From: a virus
DNA: 11,654 nt
IMG/VR virus record: IMGVR_UViG_3300045988_043402
Strand: one strand, 5' to 3'
Shown: positions 14-11,654 of the stretch, piece by piece
Numbering within the stretch: the stretch's first letter is position 1
Layout: the number at the start of each line of letters is the position of its first letter
Notes under the pieces: generated by a model
Seen by the model: only the letters and a program-made list of their open reading frames with translations
The model's database searches: none
What the model was told of the DNA's origin: nothing
Position numbers and translations under genes: made by a program

Positions 14-78
14 AAAGGTACACAAGGCACGTAGATTTAACATTTCCCAACGCATATTTAACCGTTGTTAACACACTT

Positions 79-94
79 TGGCACGCTTTTTGCC
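79..94 (+). promoter_or_regulatory. Sigma54-like -24/-12 element (TGGCACG-N4-TTGC) overlapping a TGGCAC/GTGCCA inverted repeat (79..84 / 96..101)
   Basis: TGGCACGCTTTTTGCC has GG and GC separated by 10 nt, as in the RpoN consensus TGGCAC-N5-TTGC. It points inward. It could instead be a protein-binding palindrome. Confidence 0.3.
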
Positions 95-183
95 TGTGCC
101 ACAATTACGATTATTTAACACTTTTAACACATCGTAACAAAGTTAATTTTTCTTAAACTTTGCTATCGCCCTGTTAACAAAAA

Positions 184-265
184 TGTTTCACGTGGAACGG
201 TGGCAAAGTGATTGTTTCACGTGGAACAAATGAGGGTAATGAACAAAAATGTTTCACGTGGAACA
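184..265 (+). promoter_or_regulatory. Three copies of a near-palindromic 15-16 bp site TGTTTCACGTGGAAC(A), operator-like
   Basis: Exact copies lie at 184..198, 213..228 and 250..265. TGTTnCACGTGnAACA is palindromic at 14 of 16 positions, which suggests a dimeric DNA-binding protein site. Confidence 0.6.
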
Positions 266-319
266 AATAAGTGTTAACAACAGTTAATTTTATTCTTTAA
301 GACTTTTTAACTAAAATAA

Positions 320-351
320 TTTGGTGGTTTCGCAAAATCGTTGTATCTTTG
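320..351 (+). promoter_or_regulatory. Bacteroidota-type promoter (-33 TTTG, -7 TAtcTTTG) at the inner edge of the left ITR
   Basis: TTTG at 320..323 and TATCTTTG at 344..351 are separated by exactly 20 nt. This matches the Bacteroides primary sigma consensus TTTG / TAnnTTTG. It drives the plus-strand genes. Confidence 0.7.
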
Positions 352-353
352 CA

Positions 354-469
354 ACAAGTTTGGAAAAGATGCAAGTTCATTCTTGCGACTGATTCAAACA
401 AGTAAGAGAATAGGTAAATGTTTAACCGCCTGTAAGGTTCACCCATTACAGGCTTAAAATAATTGATAT
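354..469 (+). ncRNA. Structured untranslated leader or candidate small RNA downstream of the left ITR promoter
   Basis: About 110 nt with no credible ORF. It contains nested pairings: GTTTGGA 358..364 with TTCAAAC 393..399, enclosing GCAAG 371..375 with CTTGC 382..386. An 8-bp hairpin follows, GCCTGTAA 428..435 with TTACAGGC 446..453. No function has been shown. Confidence 0.25.
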
Positions 470-673
470 ATGGAATATTCATATTTTAGAATCACATTGA
501 AACAAACCGACAAAGTTACGGTTTTTATGGTACGTTCTGACAAAGTAAGTGAGTTCTTTAATAATAAGATTGATTACGTACAGAGCGATTGTTCAATAAC
601 AGTTAAGGGGCGTTTTTCAACGCATAAAGAGTCTCGCAAATGGTTTATTGTTTCACCAACAGAAAATAAATAA
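470..673 (+). CDS. Hypothetical protein, 67 aa
   Basis: First ORF after the left promoter. Its stop is 5 nt before the endolysin start. I recognise no motif. An alternative start is ATG 527. Confidence 0.5.
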   Translation: MEYSYFRITLKQTDKVTVFMVRSDKVSEFFNNKIDYVQSDCSITVKGRFSTHKESRKWFIVSPTENK

Positions 674-678
674 CTGAT

Positions 679-1104
679 ATGAAAAGAATTAAGTATTTCA
701 GTTTAGCAGAATTTATTCATTCTACAACCGCCAAACGTTTAAACATTGACAATACGCCAACGTTTGAAATAGTTGATAACTTGAATCGTTTGGCTGATTA
801 TTTGGATAACATTCGTGAAAAGTTGGGCAAACCAATTTTAGTTAATAGTGGCTATCGTTGCCCCGTGTTAAACAAAGCCGTTGGTGGTGTGGCTAACAGT
901 CAACACCAAAAAGGTTTAGCGGCTGATTTGGTTTGCGCTGATATGACAAAACTTGAATCGGTGTTAAGAGAAACAGGCGGTTTTGACCAACTTATTAAAG
1001 AACACCGCAAAGGTTTCCCGAACTCATTTTGGTTTCACGTTTCAGTTTGCCAACGTAACGGCAAACCCCGTAACCAAATTATAATGAATTTGGAAAAGAA
1101 ATAG
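679..1104 (+). CDS. Endolysin, peptidase M15 (zinc D-Ala-D-Ala carboxypeptidase / L-Ala-D-Glu peptidase fold)
   Basis: Carries SGYRCPVLN, SQHQKGLAAD and WFHVS, the SxHxxGxAxD...H zinc-ligand pattern of M15 phage lysins. It is a single domain of 141 aa with no cell-wall-binding domain, as is typical for Gram-negative hosts. Confidence 0.85.
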   Translation: MKRIKYFSLAEFIHSTTAKRLNIDNTPTFEIVDNLNRLADYLDNIREKLGKPILVNSGYRCPVLNKAVGGVANSQHQKGLAADLVCADMTKLESVLRETGGFDQLIKEHRKGFPNSFWFHVSVCQRNGKPRNQIIMNLEKK

Positions 1105-1106
1105 TT

Positions 1107-1355
1107 ATGGATAAAGCAATAAAAGTTTTGTTGAAATCGGTCAAAGGTACAACAGAATCTTTGAAGTATATAGCAGAAAATACAACAGGTACAAACGGTA
1201 TGTTATTAAGTTCTGTTATTGATACACTAAAAGCACAAGAACTAGTAATAAAAACTATTTCGTGCAAACTTGATGAAGAAACGGCAAAGAAAAACCGTGC
1301 TTTGGATTTTATTTGCAGCAAAAATTTAGCCTACGAATTTACTAACAAAAAATAA
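1107..1355 (+). CDS. Hypothetical protein, 82 aa
   Basis: Starts 2 nt after the lysin stop and ends just before the bidirectional terminator. It has no transmembrane segment or lipobox, so it is not an obvious holin or spanin. Confidence 0.55.
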   Translation: MDKAIKVLLKSVKGTTESLKYIAENTTGTNGMLLSSVIDTLKAQELVIKTISCKLDEETAKKNRALDFICSKNLAYEFTNKK

Positions 1356-1394
1356 GAAAAACAGGTAGCATTTATTTGCTACCTGTTTTCTTTT
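1356..1394. terminator. Bidirectional intrinsic terminator between the convergent arms
   Basis: A perfect 13-bp stem, AAAACAGGTAGCA 1358..1370 with TGCTACCTGTTTT 1377..1389, has a 6-nt loop. An A-run lies on one side and a T-run on the other. Confidence 0.85.
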
Positions 1395-2922
1395 ATAAAT
1401 AAACGCCTGTTTCAAGTTGTGAAACAATTTCGTTATATTCATCTACCAGCAAATTAACAGTGTTCAAATCAATGTTTTTGAACTGTGCAAACCCTGTTAC
1501 GTCCCCAATAGTTACGTTTTCTTGCGTGTTGTTAATAGGTACGTTTACGGTCAAATTTTCGGTAATTAAAACGTAAGGTTCTAAACCGTACAAAATTTGT
1601 TCGTTCCATTGTTCACCGCCAACAACGTTTAAATCTGTGCCCAAACGGTAAATAACATCACGTGACAAAGAAAAACTTTCAATTTGAAATGTTACACCAT
1701 CGCACGACAACAACGCCACGGCATCACCTGTAATTACGTTAACTTTGATAGATAAATTAACCGTTTTACCGATGTAATTACTATCAATAGAAACAACGCC
1801 ACGGCACGGGATAAACATTTGAATCTGTGCGTTATAGTCTTCATTATTACCGTTTACCCCTGTTAGTTCAACGTTGCCGAAATCTAGTAACATAACATCA
1901 CTATCGGGATATTTAACCTTTATCCCTGTGTTGTGGTTACCGCATTTCAAAACATCGTCACCACCAACGGGAACGGCTGCAAATATTCTTTTGATACGGT
2001 TTACATAAGCACCCAAATTAACCTCAGAATAAGTTGTGCCCGTGTCACTTTCGCCCGTTGGTTTAAAGAAACGTTTCTTTGAAAATTCGTTCAAATTTTC
2101 CAACGTAACAATATAAACATTTATTGCACCGTAATTTTTAATCGTTGGAGGTTGCACTACATCGGCATTTGCATAAACTGTAAACTGCGATGCACCCGAT
2201 GTTAAATTAATCGTTACTGTGCCCGTTTGCTTATCTTCCGAAATCGTGCCTTTACTTACAATAGGGTCACCCGAATCGTTTATGAAATCTGCCTGTATCT
2301 CTGTTAATTCTGCATTCGGTTTCGCTTTGAAATTAAACGTGTAACTTTGCCCTGTCTTTACCTTTACAGGTTTTTCGCCAACAATTTCGCAATTTGTTAG
2401 ACTGTAATCAACTACAATAAAATCGCCCAAAAGATACTCACCGTTTATTATAACGGATTCCGTTGCAATAGGAACAATAATTGTTGCAGTTTGGTTTGTT
2501 ACGGTCATTTCGTAAGTTTCGCCACCGTATGTTATTGTAGGCGTACCGTTAAACATTCCCCGTGCCGTTCCCTCAACTGTAACGGTGTAATTTGTTTCAC
2601 TTGCCACCGCTTTTGCAGTTGTGTTTGCAATATTGTTAGTTATTTGCAGTTCCTTTACACCCGAAATAAATTCACCTGTTATAGAAATTTCGGCACCTCT
2701 AGAGCAATAAACCGTAAGTGTACCAACGTTGCCCGAAACATTAAACGGGTCTTCCACCCAATCACCGTCCCAATCTTGATAACTAGCAATTAAATCGGTA
2801 AACGTACCGTCACCGTTGCCCGTCACTGTTATAATAAAATGGTGTGAATCATCACCCTGTTTGTCGGTTATTGTAACGTCACCCGTGAGATTCGATGTAT
2901 CGTAAGTTAATAAATTTGCCAT
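1393..2922 (-). CDS. Tail / receptor-binding protein, 509 aa
   Basis: Last and largest gene of the structural operon. The N-terminal ~250 aa is rich in beta-strand-like T/V/I repeats (ITVTGNG, YTVTVEG, TVTINLT), consistent with Ig-like domains. The function is assigned from position and composition only. Confidence 0.55.
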   Translation of the reverse strand: MANLLTYDTSNLTGDVTITDKQGDDSHHFIITVTGNGDGTFTDLIASYQDWDGDWVEDPFNVSGNVGTLTVYCSRGAEISITGEFISGVKELQITNNIANTTAKAVASETNYTVTVEGTARGMFNGTPTITYGGETYEMTVTNQTATIIVPIATESVIINGEYLLGDFIVVDYSLTNCEIVGEKPVKVKTGQSYTFNFKAKPNAELTEIQADFINDSGDPIVSKGTISEDKQTGTVTINLTSGASQFTVYANADVVQPPTIKNYGAINVYIVTLENLNEFSKKRFFKPTGESDTGTTYSEVNLGAYVNRIKRIFAAVPVGGDDVLKCGNHNTGIKVKYPDSDVMLLDFGNVELTGVNGNNEDYNAQIQMFIPCRGVVSIDSNYIGKTVNLSIKVNVITGDAVALLSCDGVTFQIESFSLSRDVIYRLGTDLNVVGGEQWNEQILYGLEPYVLITENLTVNVPINNTQENVTIGDVTGFAQFKNIDLNTVNLLVDEYNEIVSQLETGVYL

Positions 2923-2924
2923 AA

Positions 2925-3368
2925 TTAAACGTTACCTTTAATAGTTACCATAATAATACTACCTGTTTCGTTCAACAACCCTTTATTTGGAAAATCTATT
3001 TTTCTGATATTAGGGCGAACATCCACCACGTTTGCACGGTTTGAAAGATATTGGTTACCGTTTTCACTTTTTGTTAACGTTGCAGTACTGTTTAAGATAA
3101 TATCCTTATAAGTAAACAGAACGTCAACACGCAAACGAACTGTGCAAATATCCCCGTCGTGATTCAATTCTGAAACAAAATAATAACGGTTCAAACTTTC
3201 TATAAAAACATAATTGAAACTTACAGGTGTGCGAGTTCTGAAACGAACAACAGGCGTTAACACGTTAAACGTTGCATTCAATTCGCCCGTGTATTCTTCG
3301 TTTTCCTGTAAGGTCTTGTTAACGGCATTCGGTTTACCGTCATAAATAAACGTTTTAATTTTAATCAT
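2925..3368 (-). CDS. Tail tube/knob N-terminal-domain-like structural protein, 147 aa from ATG 3368
   Basis: FNYVFIESLNRYYFVSEL...VRLRVDVLFTY resembles, from memory, the N-terminal domain of phi29 gp9-type tail knob proteins (SYIMFQN...KWFYAFVTEL...FEIDVLQTW). The ORF-track start at 3407 lies inside the loop of the upstream terminator hairpin, so ATG 3368 is preferred. Confidence 0.55.
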   Translation of the reverse strand: MIKIKTFIYDGKPNAVNKTLQENEEYTGELNATFNVLTPVVRFRTRTPVSFNYVFIESLNRYYFVSELNHDGDICTVRLRVDVLFTYKDIILNSTATLTKSENGNQYLSNRANVVDVRPNIRKIDFPNKGLLNETGSIIMVTIKGNV

Positions 3369-3374
3369 ACCGCT

Positions 3375-3424
3375 AAAATTTAAAAGGGCGTGTCCCTGCG
3401 CTATCATCTACAGGAAACACGCCC
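3375..3424 (-). terminator. Intrinsic terminator / attenuator immediately after the capsid gene
   Basis: The minus strand reads GGGCGTGTTTCCTG-loop-CAGGGACACGCCC followed by TTTTAAATTTT. It lies 19 nt downstream of the capsid gene stop. Confidence 0.7.
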
Positions 3425-3442
3425 CAACAGTTAAACAACCAA

Positions 3443-4627
3443 TTAGGCTATAAAGAACACTACAAAGTTTTCGTTTGTGTCGTTGAAGTAGCCCGCATCG
3501 AATTTATAATAATTGTTGAAAAATTCTGCTTTGGCGTTGTAGTTGGTTGTTACTCGCTTATCCAAGTTTGTAACACCCAAAGCGTCACGGTCAAACATCA
3601 CACCCAACACGCCACTTATAGAAACCGTTGCACCGCTTGCAGATTTTACATCTATCTTTGAAACGTTGGCAAAAGCGTAATCTTTGCCCGTTGCTTGCCA
3701 ACTTGCCACGGTTTCAGCCTGTGGTAATAATACGTTTTCATTGTGGAACGTATCGGCATACAGATAAGTTTTTGCGGCAGCTGCAAAGTCACTCAACAAA
3801 ACGGCGTGTAACACGTCCTTTGGTGTGAAACGTTCTTTTCCACCCACGTTAAACAGGGTTGAAATGGTCTGCAAACGGTCTGAGTACAAACCCATAATAT
3901 ACGCTGCAAAGCGGATAAAATCGGGTGTGGTAATTGCCGTATCTACTGTAATCTGTGCACCTGTTTTTTCTTTGTAAAGTTTCAACAGGTTGACACAACG
4001 AACAGTTGATGCACTTGAATAATCTACTGTTCCTTGTGTTGATGCATCGAAGCCGAAAGCTTTTTTGTCAGCGTCCAAAGTTTCTGCAATCATATTGTTA
4101 ATTGTACGCATAATAAGCGCATCGGTCTTAATAGTCATTGACTTTTCAACAGCGTTGTAAATCATTGACAGAAAACCGTTCAACTGTTCCGCACTGCTGA
4201 AAGATTCTTTAACCTGTCTTTCTGTGATAGATACGGGAACTTCAAAAGTTACCTTTGAGTTAAAGAATTTAGCGGAAACAGTCGGTTTGTGAAATACGTC
4301 CTGTTTGTACTCTTTGCCGTCCTGTAAGTTCCACGTGTCATTCTCTTCAGCATTTGGAACGTCAGCGGAAATCTTTTCCAATACCGAACCAAATTCCCAC
4401 GCATCCATAAGAACGGACGGAACTTTACCCGAATAAGGACGGTTAACAAACACTACTTTACCGATATGGTTAACCAACGATTTAACGTAATTATCAACGG
4501 CATTCTGATTAAACACCTCATTACCCAAATCGACAATACCTGTAAGGTCTTCTTTAACCAAATCGCTTTTGCCTAATACTTCATCTGAAACGCTATTAAT
4601 AAGCGTGTAAATCTGTTTTACTTCCAT
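3443..4627 (-). CDS. Major capsid protein, phi29 gp8-like (HK97 fold)
   Basis: 394 aa. DNYVKSLVNHIGKVVF and LNGFLSMIYNAVEKS resemble, from memory, the phi29 gp8 segments NDFITSLVDRIGLVV and FESFVSSIINAIYNSAE. It lies downstream of the portal and is followed by its own terminator. Confidence 0.8.
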   Translation of the reverse strand: MEVKQIYTLINSVSDEVLGKSDLVKEDLTGIVDLGNEVFNQNAVDNYVKSLVNHIGKVVFVNRPYSGKVPSVLMDAWEFGSVLEKISADVPNAEENDTWNLQDGKEYKQDVFHKPTVSAKFFNSKVTFEVPVSITERQVKESFSSAEQLNGFLSMIYNAVEKSMTIKTDALIMRTINNMIAETLDADKKAFGFDASTQGTVDYSSASTVRCVNLLKLYKEKTGAQITVDTAITTPDFIRFAAYIMGLYSDRLQTISTLFNVGGKERFTPKDVLHAVLLSDFAAAAKTYLYADTFHNENVLLPQAETVASWQATGKDYAFANVSKIDVKSASGATVSISGVLGVMFDRDALGVTNLDKRVTTNYNAKAEFFNNYYKFDAGYFNDTNENFVVFFIA

Positions 4628-4645
4628 TTTTATAAAATTTAAGCA

Positions 4646-5215
4646 TTAATAAATATCTATTGTTAACTCTTTTGCAAGTTCTGCAATAACTTGCGTTTTA
4701 AAATTTGTTCTTCTAAGAATCATTTCTTTTTGAACAATTTCACTAACAGGAACACCATTCGGCAAACTGTTCTTAACAGTTGTTTTCGTGCCCGTTTCTT
4801 GTCGGTTTCCTGTGGAATCTCTTTGCTGCTTTGTGTCATTTCCGAAATCTCCATTATTAAATGTTACACTTGAATCGACCGTGTTATTATTGCCTGTTTC
4901 ATCAACGGTGTTATTTGTTGTTTCCGTCAACTTTTCAGTAACAGGGTTTAACGGGTCATATTCGTTATTAAACACTTGAATCTGTTTTTGCCATTCGTCA
5001 AACTTCACCGTGATAATGCTTTTAACAATATCGCTTGCAGTTTCGGGCGTAACGGCATTTACTAGCGTTCTGTTTCCATATTTGAAACGAAAATCAATAT
5101 CAATTAAAACGGGGTCATCTTCATTAAATATTGATTTGTACAAAACAGGAAACAGGGGTTTAAAGATTTTTTCAAACAAACCATTTTCACCCGTGAAAAG
5201 TTCATTAATTTTCAT
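4646..5215 (-). CDS. Hypothetical structural protein, 189 aa (scaffold or head-tail adaptor candidate)
   Basis: Lies between the portal and capsid genes, the usual scaffold position. It has a central N/T/D/G-rich low-complexity segment. Its start overlaps the portal stop by 11 nt. Confidence 0.4.
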   Translation of the reverse strand: MKINELFTGENGLFEKIFKPLFPVLYKSIFNEDDPVLIDIDFRFKYGNRTLVNAVTPETASDIVKSIITVKFDEWQKQIQVFNNEYDPLNPVTEKLTETTNNTVDETGNNNTVDSSVTFNNGDFGNDTKQQRDSTGNRQETGTKTTVKNSLPNGVPVSEIVQKEMILRRTNFKTQVIAELAKELTIDIY

Positions 5216-6242
5216 CTTTGTTTTCTTTTTCTTCTGTTTCCGTTTCTGTTTCTTCTGTTTCTTGCGTTTCTTCTGTTTCTGTTTCCGTTTCTTCTGTTTC
5301 TTGCGTTTCTTCTGTTTCGTTTTCGTTTACGGGGTCAACGTCTTCTGTGTCGGTGTGTTCGTGCCTGTCTTCTGTGGCTTTGAGTAACGATAAATAGTTT
5401 TCGTGCTCAATTTTCCAACTTGAACCCAACGTTACGGCTATTTCCGTACCAAACATTTCGTTAACACGTTTAACGCCCTCAACACGTTCATTTAACATTG
5501 AATCAACAAACGGCATTAAAGCGTCTATATTCATCGAAACTTCTTGCGTGTTCAAACGTTCACGTTTCATATTATAATTTGCGTTCAAACCCAAATCGTT
5601 AAACAGTGACGCTTTGTAGTACTGCAAAAGTTCAATCATTTGCGTTATCTGTTGGTTACTTTGCGTTGGCGGTGTTTGCATATTTACACCTTTGAAAAAC
5701 GCATTTTCACCAACAACCGAGAAATCACCGTCCAGAATCTTTTGCAGAAACGATTCTGCACTTTGTTTGGTCTTATCATCACTAGCAGAAATAAGCATTG
5801 TTATTCTAGTTAAAATGCTAGTCATATTCAACGTTATAACTGCATCGGTGTAAAGTACGCCGTATTTTCCGATAATTGGCAAAATTGAATCTGCAAACGG
5901 TGTGTTGTTGATAACTACAATATTATCACCGATTTTGAAAGTTTTATCCAACTTTAACCACGGGTTTGCGACAACGAAATCTTTGCCCCAATAATACGCA
6001 TCACATTCGCCACCACGTGAACCCTGTAAGGCGTACAAATCACCGTTAACTTTGGCGATTCCAACATTACCGCTAGTTTGCAGAATCTTTTCAAGTTCTA
6101 CAGGTGGCATTGTTTCGGGCGTTCCTGTATATTCAAACATTTTTGAAGTCATGCAAAGAACACGTTGCATAAAAGTATTTAATGCAGAATCTTTGTTTTT
6201 AACTTCTGTTTGATACAGGTTATATAAATTTTCTTTCTTCAT
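5205..6242 (-). CDS. Portal (connector) protein, phi29 gp10-like
   Basis: FEYTGTPETMPPVELEKIL, NIVVINNTPFADS and FNDLGLNANYNMKRERLNTQEVSMN parallel, from memory, phi29 gp10 FEWENLPPTINPSFLEKSI, VVIYNNDMAFPT and [24 protein letters not shown]. At 345 aa the size is comparable. Confidence 0.85.
   Translation of the reverse strand: MKKENLYNLYQTEVKNKDSALNTFMQRVLCMTSKMFEYTGTPETMPPVELEKILQTSGNVGIAKVNGDLYALQGSRGGECDAYYWGKDFVVANPWLKLDKTFKIGDNIVVINNTPFADSILPIIGKYGVLYTDAVITLNMTSILTRITMLISASDDKTKQSAESFLQKILDGDFSVVGENAFFKGVNMQTPPTQSNQQITQMIELLQYYKASLFNDLGLNANYNMKRERLNTQEVSMNIDALMPFVDSMLNERVEGVKRVNEMFGTEIAVTLGSSWKIEHENYLSLLKATEDRHEHTDTEDVDPVNENETEETQETEETETETEETQETEETETETEEKENKDEN
5229..5318 (-). repeat. 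39-nt tandem repeat (2.3 copies) encoding the Glu/Thr-rich C-terminal tail of the portal
   Basis: Units 5280..5318 and 5241..5279 are identical at 37 of 39 nt. A 12-nt partial unit lies at 5229..5240. Each unit encodes ETEETQETEETET. Confidence 0.9.
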
Positions 6243-6436
6243 TACTTGATAAGCGTTTTAATTAACGTACAAAGTTCTGTTAACACTTTCGTGTTACTTT
6301 GTACTGTTTCGTTTAACTTGTCGGTTTCGTTTTGGTGGCGTTCGTTCTGTTTCTCCATATAGAAGAAAAGGGCGATACAAACCGAAACAGGAAAACCAAC
6401 GTTACTAATTAAAGATACGATTCCGTTTAAATCCAT
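6242..6436 (-). CDS. Small single-pass membrane protein, 64 aa (holin candidate, YvrJ-like N-terminus)
   Basis: One hydrophobic helix (IVSLISNVGFPVSVCIALFFYM) is followed by a charged helical tail. It is the first gene after the central promoter, and its stop overlaps the portal start (TAATG). Confidence 0.5.
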   Translation of the reverse strand: MDLNGIVSLISNVGFPVSVCIALFFYMEKQNERHQNETDKLNETVQSNTKVLTELCTLIKTLIK

Positions 6437-6468
6437 ATAGTAAATTTTAACTTTGTTATTTTACGTTG

Positions 6469-6500
6469 CAAAGATAGTATTATTTTCTGAAAACACCAAA
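6469..6500 (-). promoter_or_regulatory. Bacteroidota-type promoter for the structural operon
   Basis: The minus strand reads TTTG (6500..6497), then 20 nt, then TATCTTTG (6476..6469). The extended TATCTTTGCAAC is identical to the left ITR promoter. Confidence 0.7.
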
Positions 6501-6547
6501 TAAAACGGGGGAAAATGCTTCACATGAAACACTTTTTATCCCCGTTT
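6501..6547 (-). terminator. Terminator ending the replication/packaging operon
   Basis: The minus strand reads AAACGGGG ... CCCCGTTT (6547..6540 pairing with 6510..6503), with an internally pairing loop, followed by TATTTGG. It starts 9 nt after the ATPase stop. Confidence 0.6.
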
Positions 6548-6555
6548 AACAGATT

Positions 6556-7695
6556 TTAAGTAATAATGTTACTTCTAGCACTTGCCATTAAATAATTTCT
6601 TACAATTTCCCCAATTTCGTTATTTTGATAAAATACCTTATCGGTGGCGAAATACTTTGTTATCTGTGATTCCAGATAACTTGCAGTACTCAACAACTTG
6701 CGTTTATAATTCGGTTTGCCGTTCATTTGCAGCGAATAAATTAAACTGTTGTCTGTGTCTTTTATCGGGGTTGTTTTGTTATGGATATAAACAAAGTTGT
6801 TAACCCCTGTTTCTTCGTCTTCTACCTGTATAACGTTGCCCTGTAAGGTCATTTCATTAAACTGAATATAGAAGACAAATAACACATCATTCGGGCGATA
6901 TTTAACAGGCAAATGCGGATAAACTGCAAGTTCCCATTTACCGCCCGTAATCATCTGCAAATTTTGATTGTCGAAACAGAAATATTTGTTACTGGCTTTC
7001 TGTTTAACAATCGTGCTGCAATATTCTACTGCAACCGTTGCCCCGTGTTCACCGAATTTATAAATATCTATTGTTCCCTGTTCCATTACTCGCACTTGTT
7101 TCAATCCCATTTCGGTAAAATACGGGCAAAACTGATTTACCGTGTTACCCAACATAAAAACTTTAACATCATTTCTTTGTCGAATAATCGTGCTTAACAG
7201 GTTCATATATAACATAAATTCATCGGGCAAATAATAACGTCTTGTCAAGAATTCATCAAATACAATCGTGGTTATATTCGGGTAACTACTACTTTTTTCG
7301 TGTTCCTGTTCTGAAAGACAAAACCCGAAACAAAACGGCACGTTGTCGGGTACACGTTTTTTGGTTTCGGGGTCATAAGACGAAAGAAACCATTTACCCG
7401 ATATATAAAACACTTCGTTAAACTTGCCGTTTGTTAATTCTTGAATCAAACCGTTTGCAACGTGATTTGAAAATAAACTTTCGGCACGTTTGCCCCTTAA
7501 ATCTTCACGCCAACGTCTAATATACGCCATTTGTTTACCCGTCTTCAAATATTCTTTGATTCCATACAACAACGTGGCGTATGTTTTACCGTTGGAACGT
7601 TCACCGAATATTACGTTATAATCGGCATTCTTTGCCAAAATTCGTGAAAGACTGTAAAACTTTGGCGTTTCTACTTTTTCTTTCTTCTGTTTCAT
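6556..7695 (-). CDS. DNA encapsidation ATPase, phi29 gp16-like
   Basis: Walker A is FGERSNGKTYA and Walker B is YPNITTIVFDEF. These, together with KQMAYIRRW and LGNTVNQFCPYF, parallel, from memory, phi29 gp16 IGARGIGKSYA, YPNVSTIVFDEF, EQFIYVRRY and LSNAVSVVNPYF. Confidence 0.9.
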   Translation of the reverse strand: MKQKKEKVETPKFYSLSRILAKNADYNVIFGERSNGKTYATLLYGIKEYLKTGKQMAYIRRWREDLRGKRAESLFSNHVANGLIQELTNGKFNEVFYISGKWFLSSYDPETKKRVPDNVPFCFGFCLSEQEHEKSSSYPNITTIVFDEFLTRRYYLPDEFMLYMNLLSTIIRQRNDVKVFMLGNTVNQFCPYFTEMGLKQVRVMEQGTIDIYKFGEHGATVAVEYCSTIVKQKASNKYFCFDNQNLQMITGGKWELAVYPHLPVKYRPNDVLFVFYIQFNEMTLQGNVIQVEDEETGVNNFVYIHNKTTPIKDTDNSLIYSLQMNGKPNYKRKLLSTASYLESQITKYFATDKVFYQNNEIGEIVRNYLMASARSNIIT

Positions 7696-7696
7696 A

Positions 7697-9907
7697 TTAT
7701 TCTTTCTTTAATCTGATACCCATTAAATAATTTATATAAAGAACTGAAAGACTTAAAGTGTACCCTGTTGGTTCTAAGTGTACGCCCGTTTTCGTGTCGT
7801 AACTTGAAACCGTGCCTAAATAGTCTTTTATCGTTCCCGTCTGCTCGTAATCTACATACGTATGTATGTTTTTACCTGTTGCCGCTGGCGGTATATCTAA
7901 ATAGTTCGTGAAAGCGTCAAAGATTCCGTTTTCCCCGTATGTTTCCAACATATACGGGATAGCAGATTTTTTGTTAACGCCCGATACCGTCAAACTGAAA
8001 TCGTAACTTTTCCCGTCAACTGTTAGGGCGTTTTCTTCTTGTACCATATAACGTTTTGCGCCCAAAGTTTTAAAGCGTGTGTAGCGTCCCTCGTAATCCC
8101 AAACGCCCAAAGGTTTTGCTATTCCCTTAATTGTTACGGGTTCAACCTTTTCAAACGGTATTTTGTGGAATCTACAGGCTGCACGTAGTTTTTGTTGTGC
8201 TAAATCGTTGTACGCTTTGAAATATACTTTGTGTTCGTCACCATTCATTATTTTAACAGAATCGGTATCACTATAAATGTAATCGTCACCACATTCAGAA
8301 ATACCCGTGAATAAATTTCTTCGCGCGTAGGCGGTAACATAAATACCCCACGGGTAAAACAAGAAACGATTTTTACTATCGTTGTATTTGTTCAACATTT
8401 CCAACTGTTTTTCGCCTGTAAGGTGTTCCACGTCCCACGATTCACCATCACACAAAATTTCATCACGCAACGGGTTTGTAACACACATACCGTAACAGGA
8501 ATTAAGCATTTCTTTTGAATTTAAATATTCTACTTCTTTTCCTTTTACGCCTTTTAGTTTCGTTTTCATTTCGTACAAATGCAGAATCGAATTAATAAAT
8601 TCCGTTGGCAAATATTCTTTGCGATAACAAATCATTCGCCCGATTCTTATTTGTTCCCACGTGTAAAACTGTGAAAAAACCCTGTAATCTATTTCGGTAA
8701 TAGTCATACAAATTTTCTTTGCACAAACCAAACGCCCGTTATTTTCTGAAACGTTTTCTTTTACGAAACACTTACTAACAGAAATTGGGTTTTCGTTTTC
8801 TGATTTGGCGAAAATGTTAGTAATTTCAACGTCAAACACGCAACAGTATTTTGAAATCATAAATTCAAACTGTTTCATTGACTTAACAGGAACTACTACG
8901 CCCGTACTCATTGGGAACTTCTCGGATACCATAACATACGGGTAACTGCTAGTAAAATCGTACGAATCAACGTCCGTTATTACTTCGTCCGTGTACTTTG
9001 CATTTGCGTGCGTGAAACCTCCCGAAAACGCCCTTTGTAACATTTCAAATTCTTCAATACCCGTTATGTTTAAGTTATGAATTTTATCCAAATACTTAAA
9101 GTTTGGTACGGTTTTTCCTGTTTCGGGATCTGTTGTCTTGAAACATACAGAACGGCAATATTTGCGCACAAAACCCGTTTTTGTAATCGGTAAACGTGTT
9201 ATTCCTTTGTACTGCTCGATTAATTCCTGTATATAGCACATTACCACTTTTATATCATTCAAACAGTAACCAACTTCTTTCGGGGTCAACGGGGTTAAAC
9301 TGTGACGCAACAGGCTATAATCTAAATCACCCACTAACTTTGTACATTTGTATGTGTGAAGTTGTTCGCCCAATTTCGCCAACGAATAACCCGACAATAA
9401 ATAACTGCAACGGAACTCTAAACCGCTTTTTGTTATTCCGTAAATTGGCTTGCGTAGGTCTATTGAAAAAACCTTTTCCCATTTCAACAGTTCTCGAAAA
9501 AATTGGAACTCGTACGCCAAATTGTGAACGTATATAATAATACGTTTCTTTGGGCAAAGTTCTAACAGGGTGCAAATATCATCAAGCATTTTCAAAAATT
9601 CGTCCCACGTGCGCCCCATTATGCAGAAACCATTGATTCCAAATTGCCAAACATACATTAAAGAACACTTTTCCATTTTGGTTTCTTTTCCACCTAATTT
9701 TATATAACGTTCATAACTGTATGTTTCCCCGTTTACGTCCCTGTAAAAAGACGTTGTTTCAATATCGAAAGATACAGGCACGTTTAAGAACTTTTCGCCC
9801 TTATTATTGCCTGTAAAATTCTTTTCGTTCACCGCCAAAGAAAGAACTTTTGCAATATCTTTCGGGGTGTAAATTTCGTTATGTAGTTCAAAGGGAATCT
9901 TTTTCAT
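7697..9907 (-). CDS. Protein-primed family B DNA polymerase
   Basis: Exo I is FDIETTS, Exo II is HNLAYEFQF and Exo III is YCLNDIKV. Motif A is DFTSSYPYV, motif B is KEMLNSCYG and motif C is YSDTDS, and a KxY motif (GAKRY) is present. The genome has ITRs and encodes no primase or helicase. Confidence 0.95.
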   Translation of the reverse strand: MKKIPFELHNEIYTPKDIAKVLSLAVNEKNFTGNNKGEKFLNVPVSFDIETTSFYRDVNGETYSYERYIKLGGKETKMEKCSLMYVWQFGINGFCIMGRTWDEFLKMLDDICTLLELCPKKRIIIYVHNLAYEFQFFRELLKWEKVFSIDLRKPIYGITKSGLEFRCSYLLSGYSLAKLGEQLHTYKCTKLVGDLDYSLLRHSLTPLTPKEVGYCLNDIKVVMCYIQELIEQYKGITRLPITKTGFVRKYCRSVCFKTTDPETGKTVPNFKYLDKIHNLNITGIEEFEMLQRAFSGGFTHANAKYTDEVITDVDSYDFTSSYPYVMVSEKFPMSTGVVVPVKSMKQFEFMISKYCCVFDVEITNIFAKSENENPISVSKCFVKENVSENNGRLVCAKKICMTITEIDYRVFSQFYTWEQIRIGRMICYRKEYLPTEFINSILHLYEMKTKLKGVKGKEVEYLNSKEMLNSCYGMCVTNPLRDEILCDGESWDVEHLTGEKQLEMLNKYNDSKNRFLFYPWGIYVTAYARRNLFTGISECGDDYIYSDTDSVKIMNGDEHKVYFKAYNDLAQQKLRAACRFHKIPFEKVEPVTIKGIAKPLGVWDYEGRYTRFKTLGAKRYMVQEENALTVDGKSYDFSLTVSGVNKKSAIPYMLETYGENGIFDAFTNYLDIPPAATGKNIHTYVDYEQTGTIKDYLGTVSSYDTKTGVHLEPTGYTLSLSVLYINYLMGIRLKKE

Positions 9908-10578
9908 TATAAACCGAATTTTTCAAATTCTGATAGAATCTTTTTCAACGGTGCATCATCATTAAAATGGTCAACACCATTTACAAACGCTTCTGATGTT
10001 GGCGAACTTGAAATTTGTTCCATTGCGTCATCTAAGGCGTTTTCAATTTTAATTGCGTCATCTTCGATTTGGTCTGATACGTCCCGTGATTCCTGTTCAA
10101 GTTCACCCGTGAAATCTTTGTACTGCATCAAATAGTTTTCTAAGAAACGGGTATCTGAAACGCTTGCGATTTTACCTATCAATTTATCTTGCATCAATTT
10201 AAACTCTTTATCGTTCAAATCATAAGAGTTTTTTAAATGGTTTGCATATTCACGTGTACCACTTGCAGTTGATGTTGGTTGTTGCAAGAAAGAAACCGCT
10301 TTGGCGTACTCAATCTTTAAATCGTTCCAATCATGTTTCATTGAAAATTTTGTAAATCCTTTTATGTCACCTTTGTTTAATGCAACAACTGCGGGCGAAA
10401 TGATTCCCGAATTTTCAACGTTTTGAATGCGTCTGTTTGCCTGTTGAAACACACGGGCGATTTCTCTACGCAAATATCCACGTGATTCAATAGCGTTTAA
10501 AATTTGCATATCAACGTGTATTTTGCCCGTTGCTGCAAATGTCCTTTTAGAAAAACCTATAGGGTTCAATTTTGCCAT
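9907..10578 (-). CDS. Putative terminal protein, 223 aa
   Basis: Lies immediately upstream of the polymerase and overlaps it by 1 nt (TAATG), matching the phi29 gene 3 - gene 2 synteny. The N-terminal half is basic and the C-terminal half strongly acidic, as in the phi29 terminal protein priming domain. I recognise no sequence motif. Confidence 0.5.
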   Translation of the reverse strand: MAKLNPIGFSKRTFAATGKIHVDMQILNAIESRGYLRREIARVFQQANRRIQNVENSGIISPAVVALNKGDIKGFTKFSMKHDWNDLKIEYAKAVSFLQQPTSTASGTREYANHLKNSYDLNDKEFKLMQDKLIGKIASVSDTRFLENYLMQYKDFTGELEQESRDVSDQIEDDAIKIENALDDAMEQISSSPTSEAFVNGVDHFNDDAPLKKILSEFEKFGL

Positions 10579-10600
10579 AACTTTACTAATTTTAAATGAA

Positions 10601-10643
10601 ACAAAAACAGGGGTAACAATAACTAAGTACTGTTTACCCCTGT
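10601..10643 (-). terminator. Intrinsic terminator / attenuator between the small early genes and the terminal protein-polymerase genes
   Basis: A 10-bp perfect stem, ACAGGGGTAA 10607..10616 with TTACCCCTGT 10634..10643, is followed on the minus strand by TTTTGTTT. Confidence 0.65.
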
Positions 10644-10670
10644 AACGTTATCCACCTTTTACCTACAAAA

Positions 10671-11036
10671 CTACTTATCTACAAAGGTAATACCGTAACA
10701 CTTCTTGGCATGCGATTCATATTCATAAATCGTGTAACCAACTTTGTTCGCTTTGATAGCGTCTACAGCATCGGGATTCGCTAAAATTTCTCGCACCGTG
10801 TCACCTGTGAACTGTGGCAAATTAACAAGACGCTTATTTTCTGCGTCAATGATAACGGGTGAATCACCCAACTGTGATTTGTGAACGTACATACCATTAA
10901 TAGGGTGTACCACATCACCGCCACCGTCTTTATTATCGTTAAAAATGTCGGTCAACTTCACAAATGGAAAATCTGTAGTATCAATACCGAAACTAGTCTT
11001 ATTAAAAGTACTAGCAAAACTAAAACCTTTTGGCAT
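10671..11036 (-). CDS. Hypothetical early protein, 121 aa (SSB or DNA-binding protein candidate by synteny)
   Basis: Occupies the position and size class of phi29 p5/p6 upstream of the terminal protein. An attenuator follows it, implying higher expression than the polymerase. I recognise no motif. Confidence 0.6.
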   Translation of the reverse strand: MPKGFSFASTFNKTSFGIDTTDFPFVKLTDIFNDNKDGGGDVVHPINGMYVHKSQLGDSPVIIDAENKRLVNLPQFTGDTVREILANPDAVDAIKANKVGYTIYEYESHAKKCYGITFVDK

Positions 11037-11087
11037 AACTTTAAACTTTAAAACATTAAACTTTCTGTTACCTGTGAACGCCTGTTA

Positions 11088-11255
11088 TTACTTAACTTCA
11101 TTCATACCGTTTGCTGCTGCAAACTCATTCAACCACTTCTTAAAGCGGTTCAACTTAATAACCGCCTTATCGTCTTTTGCAACCTCGTTGCTAGTCATAA
11201 GGGCGTTAACACTTGTAATACAGTTAAAAACGGTCTCATTAAAATTTTCGTTCAT
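11088..11255 (-). CDS. Hypothetical early protein, 55 aa (absent from the supplied ORF track)
   Basis: Hand translation gives MNENFNETVFNCITSVNALMTSNEVAKDDKAVIKLNRFKKWLNEFAAANGMNEVK, with ATG at 11255 and TAA at 11090..11088. An in-frame stop lies 2 codons upstream. It is the first ORF after the right ITR promoter and is on the same strand as the whole arm. Confidence 0.5.
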   Translation of the reverse strand: MNENFNETVFNCITSVNALMTSNEVAKDDKAVIKLNRFKKWLNEFAAANGMNEVK

Positions 11256-11303
11256 AATTACCTAATTTAAATTGTTAAACTTATTTGTTTCTTAAACACG
11301 GTG

Positions 11304-11335
11304 CAAAGATACAACGATTTTGCGAAACCACCAAA
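11304..11335 (-). promoter_or_regulatory. Identical Bacteroidota-type promoter at the inner edge of the right ITR
   Basis: Reverse complement of 320..351. It points into the minus-strand replication operon. Confidence 0.7.
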
Positions 11336-11389
11336 TTATTTTAGTTAAAAAGTCTTAAAGAATAAAATTAACTGTTGTTAACACTTATT

Positions 11390-11471
11390 TGTTCCACGTG
11401 AAACATTTTTGTTCATTACCCTCATTTGTTCCACGTGAAACAATCACTTTGCCACCGTTCCACGTGAAACA
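11390..11471 (-). promoter_or_regulatory. Mirror set of the three operator-like palindromes in the right ITR
   Basis: TGTTCCACGTGAAACA copies within the right ITR are the reverse complement of 184..265. Confidence 0.6.
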
Positions 11472-11560
11472 TTTTTGTTAACAGGGCGATAGCAAAGTTT
11501 AAGAAAAATTAACTTTGTTACGATGTGTTAAAAGTGTTAAATAATCGTAATTGTGGCACA

Positions 11561-11576
11561 GGCAAAAAGCGTGCCA
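11561..11576 (-). promoter_or_regulatory. Mirror copy of the sigma54-like element in the right ITR
   Basis: GGCAAAAAGCGTGCCA is the reverse complement of 79..94. Confidence 0.3.
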
Positions 11577-11641
11577 AAGTGTGTTAACAACGGTTAAATA
11601 TGCGTTGGGAAATGTTAAATCTACGTGCCTTGTGTACCTTT

Positions 11642-11654
11642 AGATCGGAAGAGC
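11642..11654. other. Illumina adapter remnant, not biological
   Basis: Exact AGATCGGAAGAGC at the 3' end of the window. Confidence 0.95.

Follow-up and report, generated by a model that had tools for sequence, protein, structure and literature searches.

The IMG/VR virus record IMGVR_UViG_3300045988_043402 is a stretch of 11,654 nucleotides, referred to here in its entirety as the window, which carries the genome of a small phi29-like phage. The Illumina adapter GCTCTTCCGATCT was read directly at 1-13 and again at 11642-11654. The ends of the window are thus adapter and not phage, so that the genome occupies 14-11641 (11,628 bp, GC content 36.7%), exactly the limits drawn by an original prediction made from the letters alone. 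Its first letters are AAAGGTACAC, its inverted terminal repeats (ITRs) are perfect over 340 bp, and 14 open reading frames (ORFs) span 90% of it; a tRNA scan of the window found none. We consider it probable that 14-11641 holds, complete and linear, the genome of a minimal phi29-like podophage belonging to an uncultured gut clade near Astrithrvirus, with expression signals adapted to Bacteroidota. The cultured phages used for comparison, called here the Astrithrvirus group, are Astrid/astrithr/assan (Salmonella), Phanie (Acinetobacter), DU_PP_III (Pectobacterium) and Entb_47 (Enterobacter), cluster 23 of PMC11476376. The features that bear most directly on this reading are given below, with a strand where one applies.

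1-13: Illumina adapter remnant, read directly; found ahead of this terminus in relatives L001 and L003 as well
14-353, plus strand: left ITR, with terminus AAAGGTACAC, a conserved first ~80 nt, three operator-like palindromes and promoter P_L
320-351, plus strand: promoter P_L, TTTG-N20-TATCTTTG, of the Bacteroidota -33/-7 type, heading the genes for a 67-amino-acid (aa) ORF, the lysin and an 82-aa ORF
3443-4627, minus strand: major capsid protein (MCP) of phi29 type; Phi29_MCP PF25622 (2.1e-56), 59.7% identical to the Astrid MCP
5205-6242, minus strand: portal (upper collar) of gp10 type; Phage_connector PF05352 (2.6e-12), phrog_2038 (4.4e-37)
6469-6500, minus strand: promoter P_mid, TTTG-N20-TATCTTTG, heading the holin, portal, capsid and tail operon; conserved in alignment
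6556-7695, minus strand: gp16-type DNA packaging ATPase; Podovirus_Gp16 PF05894 (2.9e-23), phi29 gp16 5HD9 (5e-20)
7697-9907, minus strand: protein-primed family B polymerase (PolB); DNA_pol_B_2 PF03175 (7.5e-14, above cut-off), phrog_1907 (1.4e-70)
11302-11641, minus strand: right ITR, the 340-bp mirror of the left ITR
11304-11335, minus strand: promoter P_R, identical to P_L, heading the early operon
11642-11654: Illumina adapter remnant, read directly

The phi29-like core set is taken as p2, p8, p9, p10, p11 and p16 (PMC11476376). Pfam and PHROGs agree on the four members named in the original prediction, namely PolB, the gp16-type ATPase, the gp10-type portal and the gp8-type capsid, and PDB sequence searches concur for PolB and the ATPase. 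PolB was aligned with phi29 DNA polymerase 1XHX (6e-11) across its exonuclease and polymerase motifs (YxxNDI, DxxSxYP, KxxLNSxYG, YxDTDS and KxY), and the ATPase with the ASCE domain of phi29 gp16. Taken with the 340-bp ITRs, these matches uphold the description of a complete podophage genome of the phi29-like, protein-primed type. Each of the 14 ORFs is conserved across ~80 related contigs, so the estimate of about 14 genes holds as well. At 11,628 bp the genome does lie at the lower size limit for tailed phages, as had been said, although Mycoplasma phage P1 is not the apt comparator: the Astrithrvirus group and its kin (11.2-11.9 kb) fit instead. Vibrio phage K58 g2 (10,390 bp) was considered as a smaller genome and rejected, its record being permuted and its PolB incomplete.

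The terminus AAAGGTACAC is common to many independently assembled relatives, some of which carry the same adapter remnant. From identical termini in independent contigs, some with adapter, we infer that these are the true physical ends of a linear molecule. The terminal ~80 nt (14-95) are almost invariant within the clade in an alignment of 24 genomes and include TTAACA repeats; this conserved segment is presumed to be the replication origin. A conserved inverted repeat, GGCACGC-TTTTT-GC..GTGCC, also lies within 14-95. The adapter stands untrimmed in a publicly deposited contig, and likewise in L001 and L003; it marks true linear ends, and trimming is advisable.

Expression signals set this genome apart from its cultured relatives. 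The claim that three promoters fit the Bacteroidota consensus is borne out by three exact occurrences of TTTG-N20-TATCTTTG, those listed above as P_L, P_mid and P_R, each in non-coding DNA and each heading a co-directional gene block. The looser pattern TTTG-N18-22-TAnnTTTG has 4 matches against an expectation of 1.06 +/- 0.94, and 0 of 200 shuffles reached 4. The fourth loose match (511-544, minus strand) is antisense within an ORF and was taken as chance. A scan for sigma-70 promoters was weakly enriched, but none of its candidates coincides with the three promoters at the operon heads, and the nearest (6444-6472) overlaps the P_mid -7 box and start site. A -33/-7 consensus of TTTG/TANNTTTG and the absence of Shine-Dalgarno (SD) sequences are hallmarks of Bacteroidetes, and the -7 element has been refined to TAHHTTTG, which fits the divergent primary sigma factor of that phylum and not sigma-70 (PMC6847099). 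TATCTTTG conforms to TAHHTTTG. The original prediction had also found every gene to lack an SD sequence, and indeed GGAG, GAGG or AGGA precedes none of the 14 start codons; the sole SD-like trace is a weak AGGT ahead of the ORF ending at 11255.

Both traits extend to the uncultured relatives. Among 80 IMG/VR relatives, SD-like motifs were found at 3% of genes, versus GGAG, GAGG or AGGAG at 64-83% of the collinear genes in Astrid and Phanie, and promoter matches number 2-6 per genome (mean 3.7). In 42 listed relatives the same three map positions carry such matches, and alignments across relatives show -33 and -7 boxes that are invariant or nearly so, with a spacer that varies. No TTTG-N19-21-TAnnTTTG promoter was found in Astrid or Phanie.

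The clade to which these genomes belong is large. Related MCPs were found on at least 302 IMG/VR contigs, and the 90% protein clusters hold 4,373 members for MCP and 4,681 for PolB, gut metagenome samples included. Its nearest relative, IMGVR_UViG_3300045988_047704 (L021), matches 99% of the window at 91% nucleotide identity. A megablast search of 50,697 phage records returned no match, and blastn against Astrid gave 15% coverage at 68% identity, or ~10% similarity. The ICTV genus criterion calls for genome-wide nucleotide similarity of 70% or more, applied here against Astrithrvirus astrithr; the window is therefore not an Astrithrvirus. No classified phage exceeded 70% in this nucleotide comparison, a check that the original prediction had itself proposed. 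Its idea of an undescribed lineage survives in part: the clade is uncultured and has no classified match, but at least 302 contigs and clusters of more than 4,000 members are on record, and the contig itself is already in NCBI, JGI and ENA, its products listed as hypothetical proteins. In the literature collection searched, no paper describing the clade was found. The premise that phi29-like phages infect only Firmicutes gave way, since the nearest phages are those of the Astrithrvirus group, from Gram-negative hosts. Wider relatives include Salmonella, Acinetobacter, Pectobacterium, Enterobacter, Shigella and Vibrio phages of 11.2-11.9 kb, with MCP 56-60% and PolB 41-46% identical. In crude neighbor-joining (NJ) trees the window clade is monophyletic within the Astrid-like group. 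We regard the window as a new member, at genus level or higher, of a known phage type, with a well-supported but unproven shift of host phylum.

The remaining genes and regulatory features are as follows.

184-198, 213-227 and 250-264: three near-palindromes TGTTTCACGTGGAAC, mirrored at 11391-11471
470-673, plus strand: 67-aa protein, in 77 of 80 IMG/VR relatives at 70-94% identity
679-1104, plus strand: endolysin, single-domain Peptidase_M15_3 (Pfam 2.1e-21), phrog_894 endolysin (1.9e-36)
1107-1355, plus strand: 82-aa protein, variable among relatives (30-96% identity)
1357-1390: bidirectional intrinsic terminator between convergent operons, with a 14-bp stem, T-runs on both strands and -20.9 kcal/mol
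1393-2922, minus strand: putative large tail-knob protein, 509 aa, its C-terminal ~280 aa homologous to the Astrid/DU_PP_III distal knob
2925-3407, minus strand: putative small tail-knob protein, 160 aa; Astrid ORF9 (1.3e-8), Phanie gp9 (4e-8)
4646-5215, minus strand: structural protein, 189 aa, between portal and MCP; syntenic with and weakly homologous to Phanie gp7 (0.003)
6242-6436, minus strand: single-pass membrane protein, 64 aa; phrog_4898 holin (4.6e-8), with orthologs in Astrid and Phanie
6503-6547, minus strand: terminator hairpin of the replication/packaging operon, -20 kcal/mol, enclosing a palindrome variant and abutting P_mid
9907-10578, minus strand: putative terminal protein, 223 aa, directly upstream of PolB and overlapping it; Astrid ORF2 (1e-6), Phanie gp2
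10671-11036, minus strand: early protein, 121 aa, 79-99% identity among relatives
11088-11255, minus strand: early protein, 55 aa, 78-100% identity among relatives

The TGTTTCACGTGGAAC near-palindromes are candidate operators for a phage regulator. The middle copy (213-227) is invariant in 24 of 24 aligned genomes, and most relatives carry two to three copies per ITR (1-3 overall). A variant at 6518-6533 lies inside the terminator, so that a 15-nt palindrome stands upstream of all three promoters; this placement suggests a single phage regulator with a role analogous to that of phi29 p4. The ITR repeat ends directly past the promoter -7 box. Within the 6503-6547 stem, compensatory changes are seen among relatives (GGGGG/CCCCC versus CAGGG/CCCTG). 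The hairpin, the operator variant and the late promoter form a compact early/late switch region.

Upstream of PolB, the 223-aa ORF is a probable terminal protein, judged by its position and its homologs; its homologs Astrid ORF2 and Phanie gp2 have been assigned as the p3 counterpart (PMC11476376). It had no Pfam match, and a PDB profile search returned chance-level matches only. Residues S61-P62-A63 and T102 are invariant, and Y149 near-invariant, out to Astrid and Phanie; S61, T102 and Y149 are candidate priming residues. The 121-aa early protein is possibly a DNA-binding protein or single-stranded DNA-binding protein, to go by its position, although it belongs to no Pfam or PHROGs family and gave only chance-level matches in a PDB profile search. 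Pfam and PHROGs likewise returned no match for the 55-, 67-, 82-, 160-, 189- and 509-aa proteins, and PHROGs none for the 223-aa protein.

Between portal and capsid, the 189-aa protein is probably a shortened lower collar (tail tube), given its synteny. Its AF2 model is of low confidence (pLDDT 52) and shows a long beta-hairpin between helices; Foldseek with this model placed tail entries of P68 and Andhra at ranks 1 and 4, both at E>1 and not significant, and a PDB sequence profile search gave only chance-level matches. By homology, the 160-aa protein probably corresponds to the N-terminal part of phi29 gp9, and its profile weakly matches the phage C1 knob 4EO2 (0.014) and phi29 gp9 5FB4 (0.041) at their N-termini. 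The 509-aa protein matched Astrid ORF10 (5e-4) and DU_PP_III (2e-7); a PDB sequence profile search with it was at chance level only. Its residues 1-255 form three Ig-like beta-sandwich domains in an AF2 model (pLDDT ~90) that is confident for this half but not for the C-terminal part, and Foldseek on the Ig-like half returned tandem Ig adhesins. It is the most variable structural gene, at 31-92% identity among relatives. The N-terminal Ig-like module of ~100 aa is single here and repeated in the relatives' homologues (600-820 aa), and one relative's knob protein carries a CBM_4_9 domain, barely over the Pfam cut-off. No separate scaffold gene was found in the window, and Pfam and PHROGs searches of its proteins revealed no gene for a tail fibre, a tail spike or a tail-associated lysin. 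At its C-terminus (5208-5350) the portal carries an acidic tail rich in E and T (TEETQETEETETETEE...), whose coding DNA consists of imperfect tandem repeats.

The lysin is, as had been described, a single-domain M15 peptidase. Its closest phage counterparts are lysins of Bacteroides fragilis siphophages (46-49% identity), and the 64-aa membrane protein is a probable holin by its PHROGs match. Lysins behave as a swappable cassette in this group: Astrid carries CHAP, Phanie an amidase, Entb_47 an L-Ala-D-Glu peptidase and the present genome M15_3. Only in this genome does the lysin have a separate operon on the opposite strand, and the promoter that heads it is also that of the early genes.

A Bacteroidota host is well supported and, from the signals above, we hold it to be very likely. 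Several observations weigh against our interpretation. The host call derives from sequence signals; the MCP and PolB trees are NJ trees without bootstrap support; and the terminal protein, lower collar and distal knob are assigned via synteny and weak homology. The lysin is barely nearer to those of Bacteroides phages (~48%, 110 bits) than to those of Achromobacter phages (44%, 99 bits). An Rfam scan at E<=5 gave only chance matches for pRNA or any other RNA, a divergent pRNA being still possible. To our knowledge, pRNA is known only from Bacillus relatives of phi29, and hence is no requirement for the wider group. Finally, a scan of genome collections returned 12 relatives, all within metagenome-assembled genomes (MAGs; GTDB genome contigs), and their labels read Melainabacteria, Prevotella, Scatosoma, Tissierella, Staphylococcaceae and Clostridia. 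These labels lend themselves to a different host, another gut bacterium with weak SD usage (Melainabacteria/Gastranaerophilales or a Firmicute), in which case the promoter matches would be fortuitous: the close relative L081 (MCP 93%) was binned to a Melainabacteria MAG, with others in Firmicutes MAGs, the low GC content raises the chance frequency of T-rich motifs, and more distant relatives exist whose SD usage sets them outside the Bacteroidota phages. However, the bins contradict one another across phyla, a mutual inconsistency for which we rejected them as host evidence, and the labels probably reflect misbinning of small, high-coverage phage contigs. Chance is also a poor account of a full motif that stood above all 200 shuffles, that recurs at the same three operon heads in the listed relatives with invariant boxes and variable spacers, and that is absent from Astrid and Phanie; its -7 element suits the Bacteroidetes primary sigma factor rather than sigma-70, and the very high abundance of the clade in gut metagenomes suits a dominant host group. 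In both trees, moreover, the genomes lacking SD fall into a single clade nested within relatives that use it, so the trait looks derived, as expected after a host shift. A host outside Bacteroidota is accordingly judged quite unlikely. Three further uncultured relatives (L086, L089 and L092; MCP 59-66% identical, GC 30-32%) use SD and have no such promoter motif, indicating that the Astrid-like group reaches further hosts.

The phage might not be self-sufficient in infection. Phanie is a satellite whose virions are infectious only once bound to the helper myophage Aci01-1's contractile tail (PMC11476376, summarising Pourcel et al.). The window phage could be a satellite of this type, its own tail non-infectious and docking onto the tail of an unrelated helper in the same Bacteroidota host. 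The review suggests the same for other Gram-negative phi29-like phages that share the split knob (PMC11476376); the module of the 160-aa and Ig-bearing 509-aa proteins is homologous to Phanie gp9/gp10 and Astrid ORF9/10; and this Phanie-like tail module, together with the lack of a detectable fibre, spike or tail-lysin gene, makes helper dependence a live possibility. Against it, the Salmonella phages of Astrid type formed plaques on isolation, and a preprint terms them non-satellite. The variability of the large knob, with Ig-like modules gained and lost and CBM_4_9 present once, is typical of a receptor-binding protein, but could also reflect adaptation to different helper tails. We consider the satellite explanation possible but improbable. 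Extended to the whole gut clade, as a Bacteroidota counterpart of Phanie that replicates and packages itself, has no working adsorption device and borrows a helper tail, it is improbable too. A far less credible alternative is that the contig is an assembly artefact, with an ITR made by the assembler or by adapter, or a non-viral linear plasmid. Adapter is present at both ends, and metagenomic ITR contigs are sometimes artefactual (PMC9610469). Nevertheless, dozens of independent contigs share the termini and ITR architecture while their sequences have diverged (70-92% identity), ITRs are also present in cultured relatives (83 and 219 bp), and a full capsid, portal, packaging and lysis set is encoded, leaving this explanation highly improbable.

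Under the favoured reading, that of a complete linear phage genome expressed in Bacteroidota, the life cycle may be sketched as follows. The terminal protein and protein-primed PolB would, by homology, initiate at both genome ends, with the terminal ~80 nt of the ITRs acting as replication origin and the 5'-AAA reiteration permitting sliding-back as in phi29. Given the conserved signals, a host RNA polymerase of the sigma-ABfr type is predicted to read the three TTTG-N20-TATCTTTG promoters, with transcription beginning near 358 (plus strand), 6462 (minus strand) and 11297 (minus strand). P_R would drive the early proteins, terminal protein, PolB and ATPase; P_L, the lysin operon; and the mid-genome promoter, the holin, portal, collar, capsid and tail knob. 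The hairpin terminator would part the early from the late unit, the bidirectional terminator would close the convergent operons, and the 15-nt palindrome upstream of the promoters is probably bound by a phage regulator. Translation is expected to proceed without SD pairing. Packaging would use the gp16-type ATPase working on the gp10-type portal, the tail would consist of the portal, a short collar and a two-piece knob with Ig-like domains and nothing more, and lysis may be achieved by the small holin and M15 peptidase.

If the host call is true, the reach of protein-primed phi29-like phages, and of the ~11.6-kb Astrithrvirus-like mini-phages in particular, includes Bacteroidota, which dominate among the Gram-negative phyla in the human gut. 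The lineage is very abundant yet entirely uncultured. The genome would then be a compact, mapped case in which promoters and translation starts were rewired for a new host phylum while the replication and morphogenesis core was kept. With three promoters, two terminators and one operator motif, it could serve as a natural minimal chassis for Bacteroidota genetics. It is also a concrete isolation target that lets the generality of helper-tail dependence in the group be probed; if the satellite explanation were true, tail piracy would count among the widespread strategies of the human gut virome, the clade having been seen thousands of times in gut metagenomes.

Compared with phi29 (Salasmaviridae, Picovirinae), the window has in common a protein-primed PolB, a nuclease-less gp16-type ATPase, a gp10 portal, the MCP fold family and a putatively gp9-related knob, as well as a linear genome with terminal 5'-AAAG... 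and early and late operons. The phi29 MCP is too distant to show in tblastn with the window MCP. Unlike the window, phi29 has a 19.3-kb genome, a 6-bp ITR, a Gram-positive host, sigma-A promoters and SD usage, and its pRNA, scaffold, head fibres, gp12 appendages and gp13 tail lysin were not detected in the window by Pfam, PHROGs or Rfam. A Bacteroidales host has been proposed for one other, more distant phi29-like faecal genome (PMC11476376). This genome, isolate 2692_55609 (cluster 30 of PMC11476376), resembles the window in its size of ~12 kb, its origin in human faeces, its split tail knob and its suggested host, but by the review's description it has 12,148 bp, 42.5% GC and a singleton MCP cluster, and groups with Amedibacillus phage AD70P2. 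The window MCP is 59% identical to that of Astrid and ~30% to those of Amedibacillus phages. L021 shares with the window its 14 genes, termini, promoters and operators, and falls below the 95% species threshold; it and its kin are uncultured and unannotated.

The closest described system is the Astrithrvirus group. A 2024 review presents its members as phi29-like phages of Gram-negative bacteria in which the collar is shortened, two genes encode the tail knob and fibre genes are absent (PMC11476376). Like the window, members of the Astrithrvirus group are linear with ITRs, measure 11.5-11.9 kb and have no tail fibre or spike genes. Both share the gene order early ORFs, terminal protein, PolB, ATPase, membrane protein, portal, ~185-aa protein, MCP, small knob and large knob, and 10 of the 14 window genes are collinear orthologs in Astrid and Phanie. 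Identity to the window is 58-60% for MCP, 51-54% for the ATPase, 45-46% for PolB and 36-39% for the portal, whereas nucleotide similarity is ~8-10%, below the 70% genus threshold. In contrast to the window, the group has Proteobacteria hosts, SD sequences in 64-83% of genes and no TTTG-N19-21-TAnnTTTG. ITR length also differs (window 340 bp, Astrid 83 bp, DU_PP_III 219 bp), and where the window has its M15_3 lysin in an opposite-strand operon, the group has a CHAP or amidase lysin ending the structural operon. Judged by its collinearity, split knob and fibre-less tail, the window belongs to an informal, family-level group of Astrithrvirus-like mini-phages.

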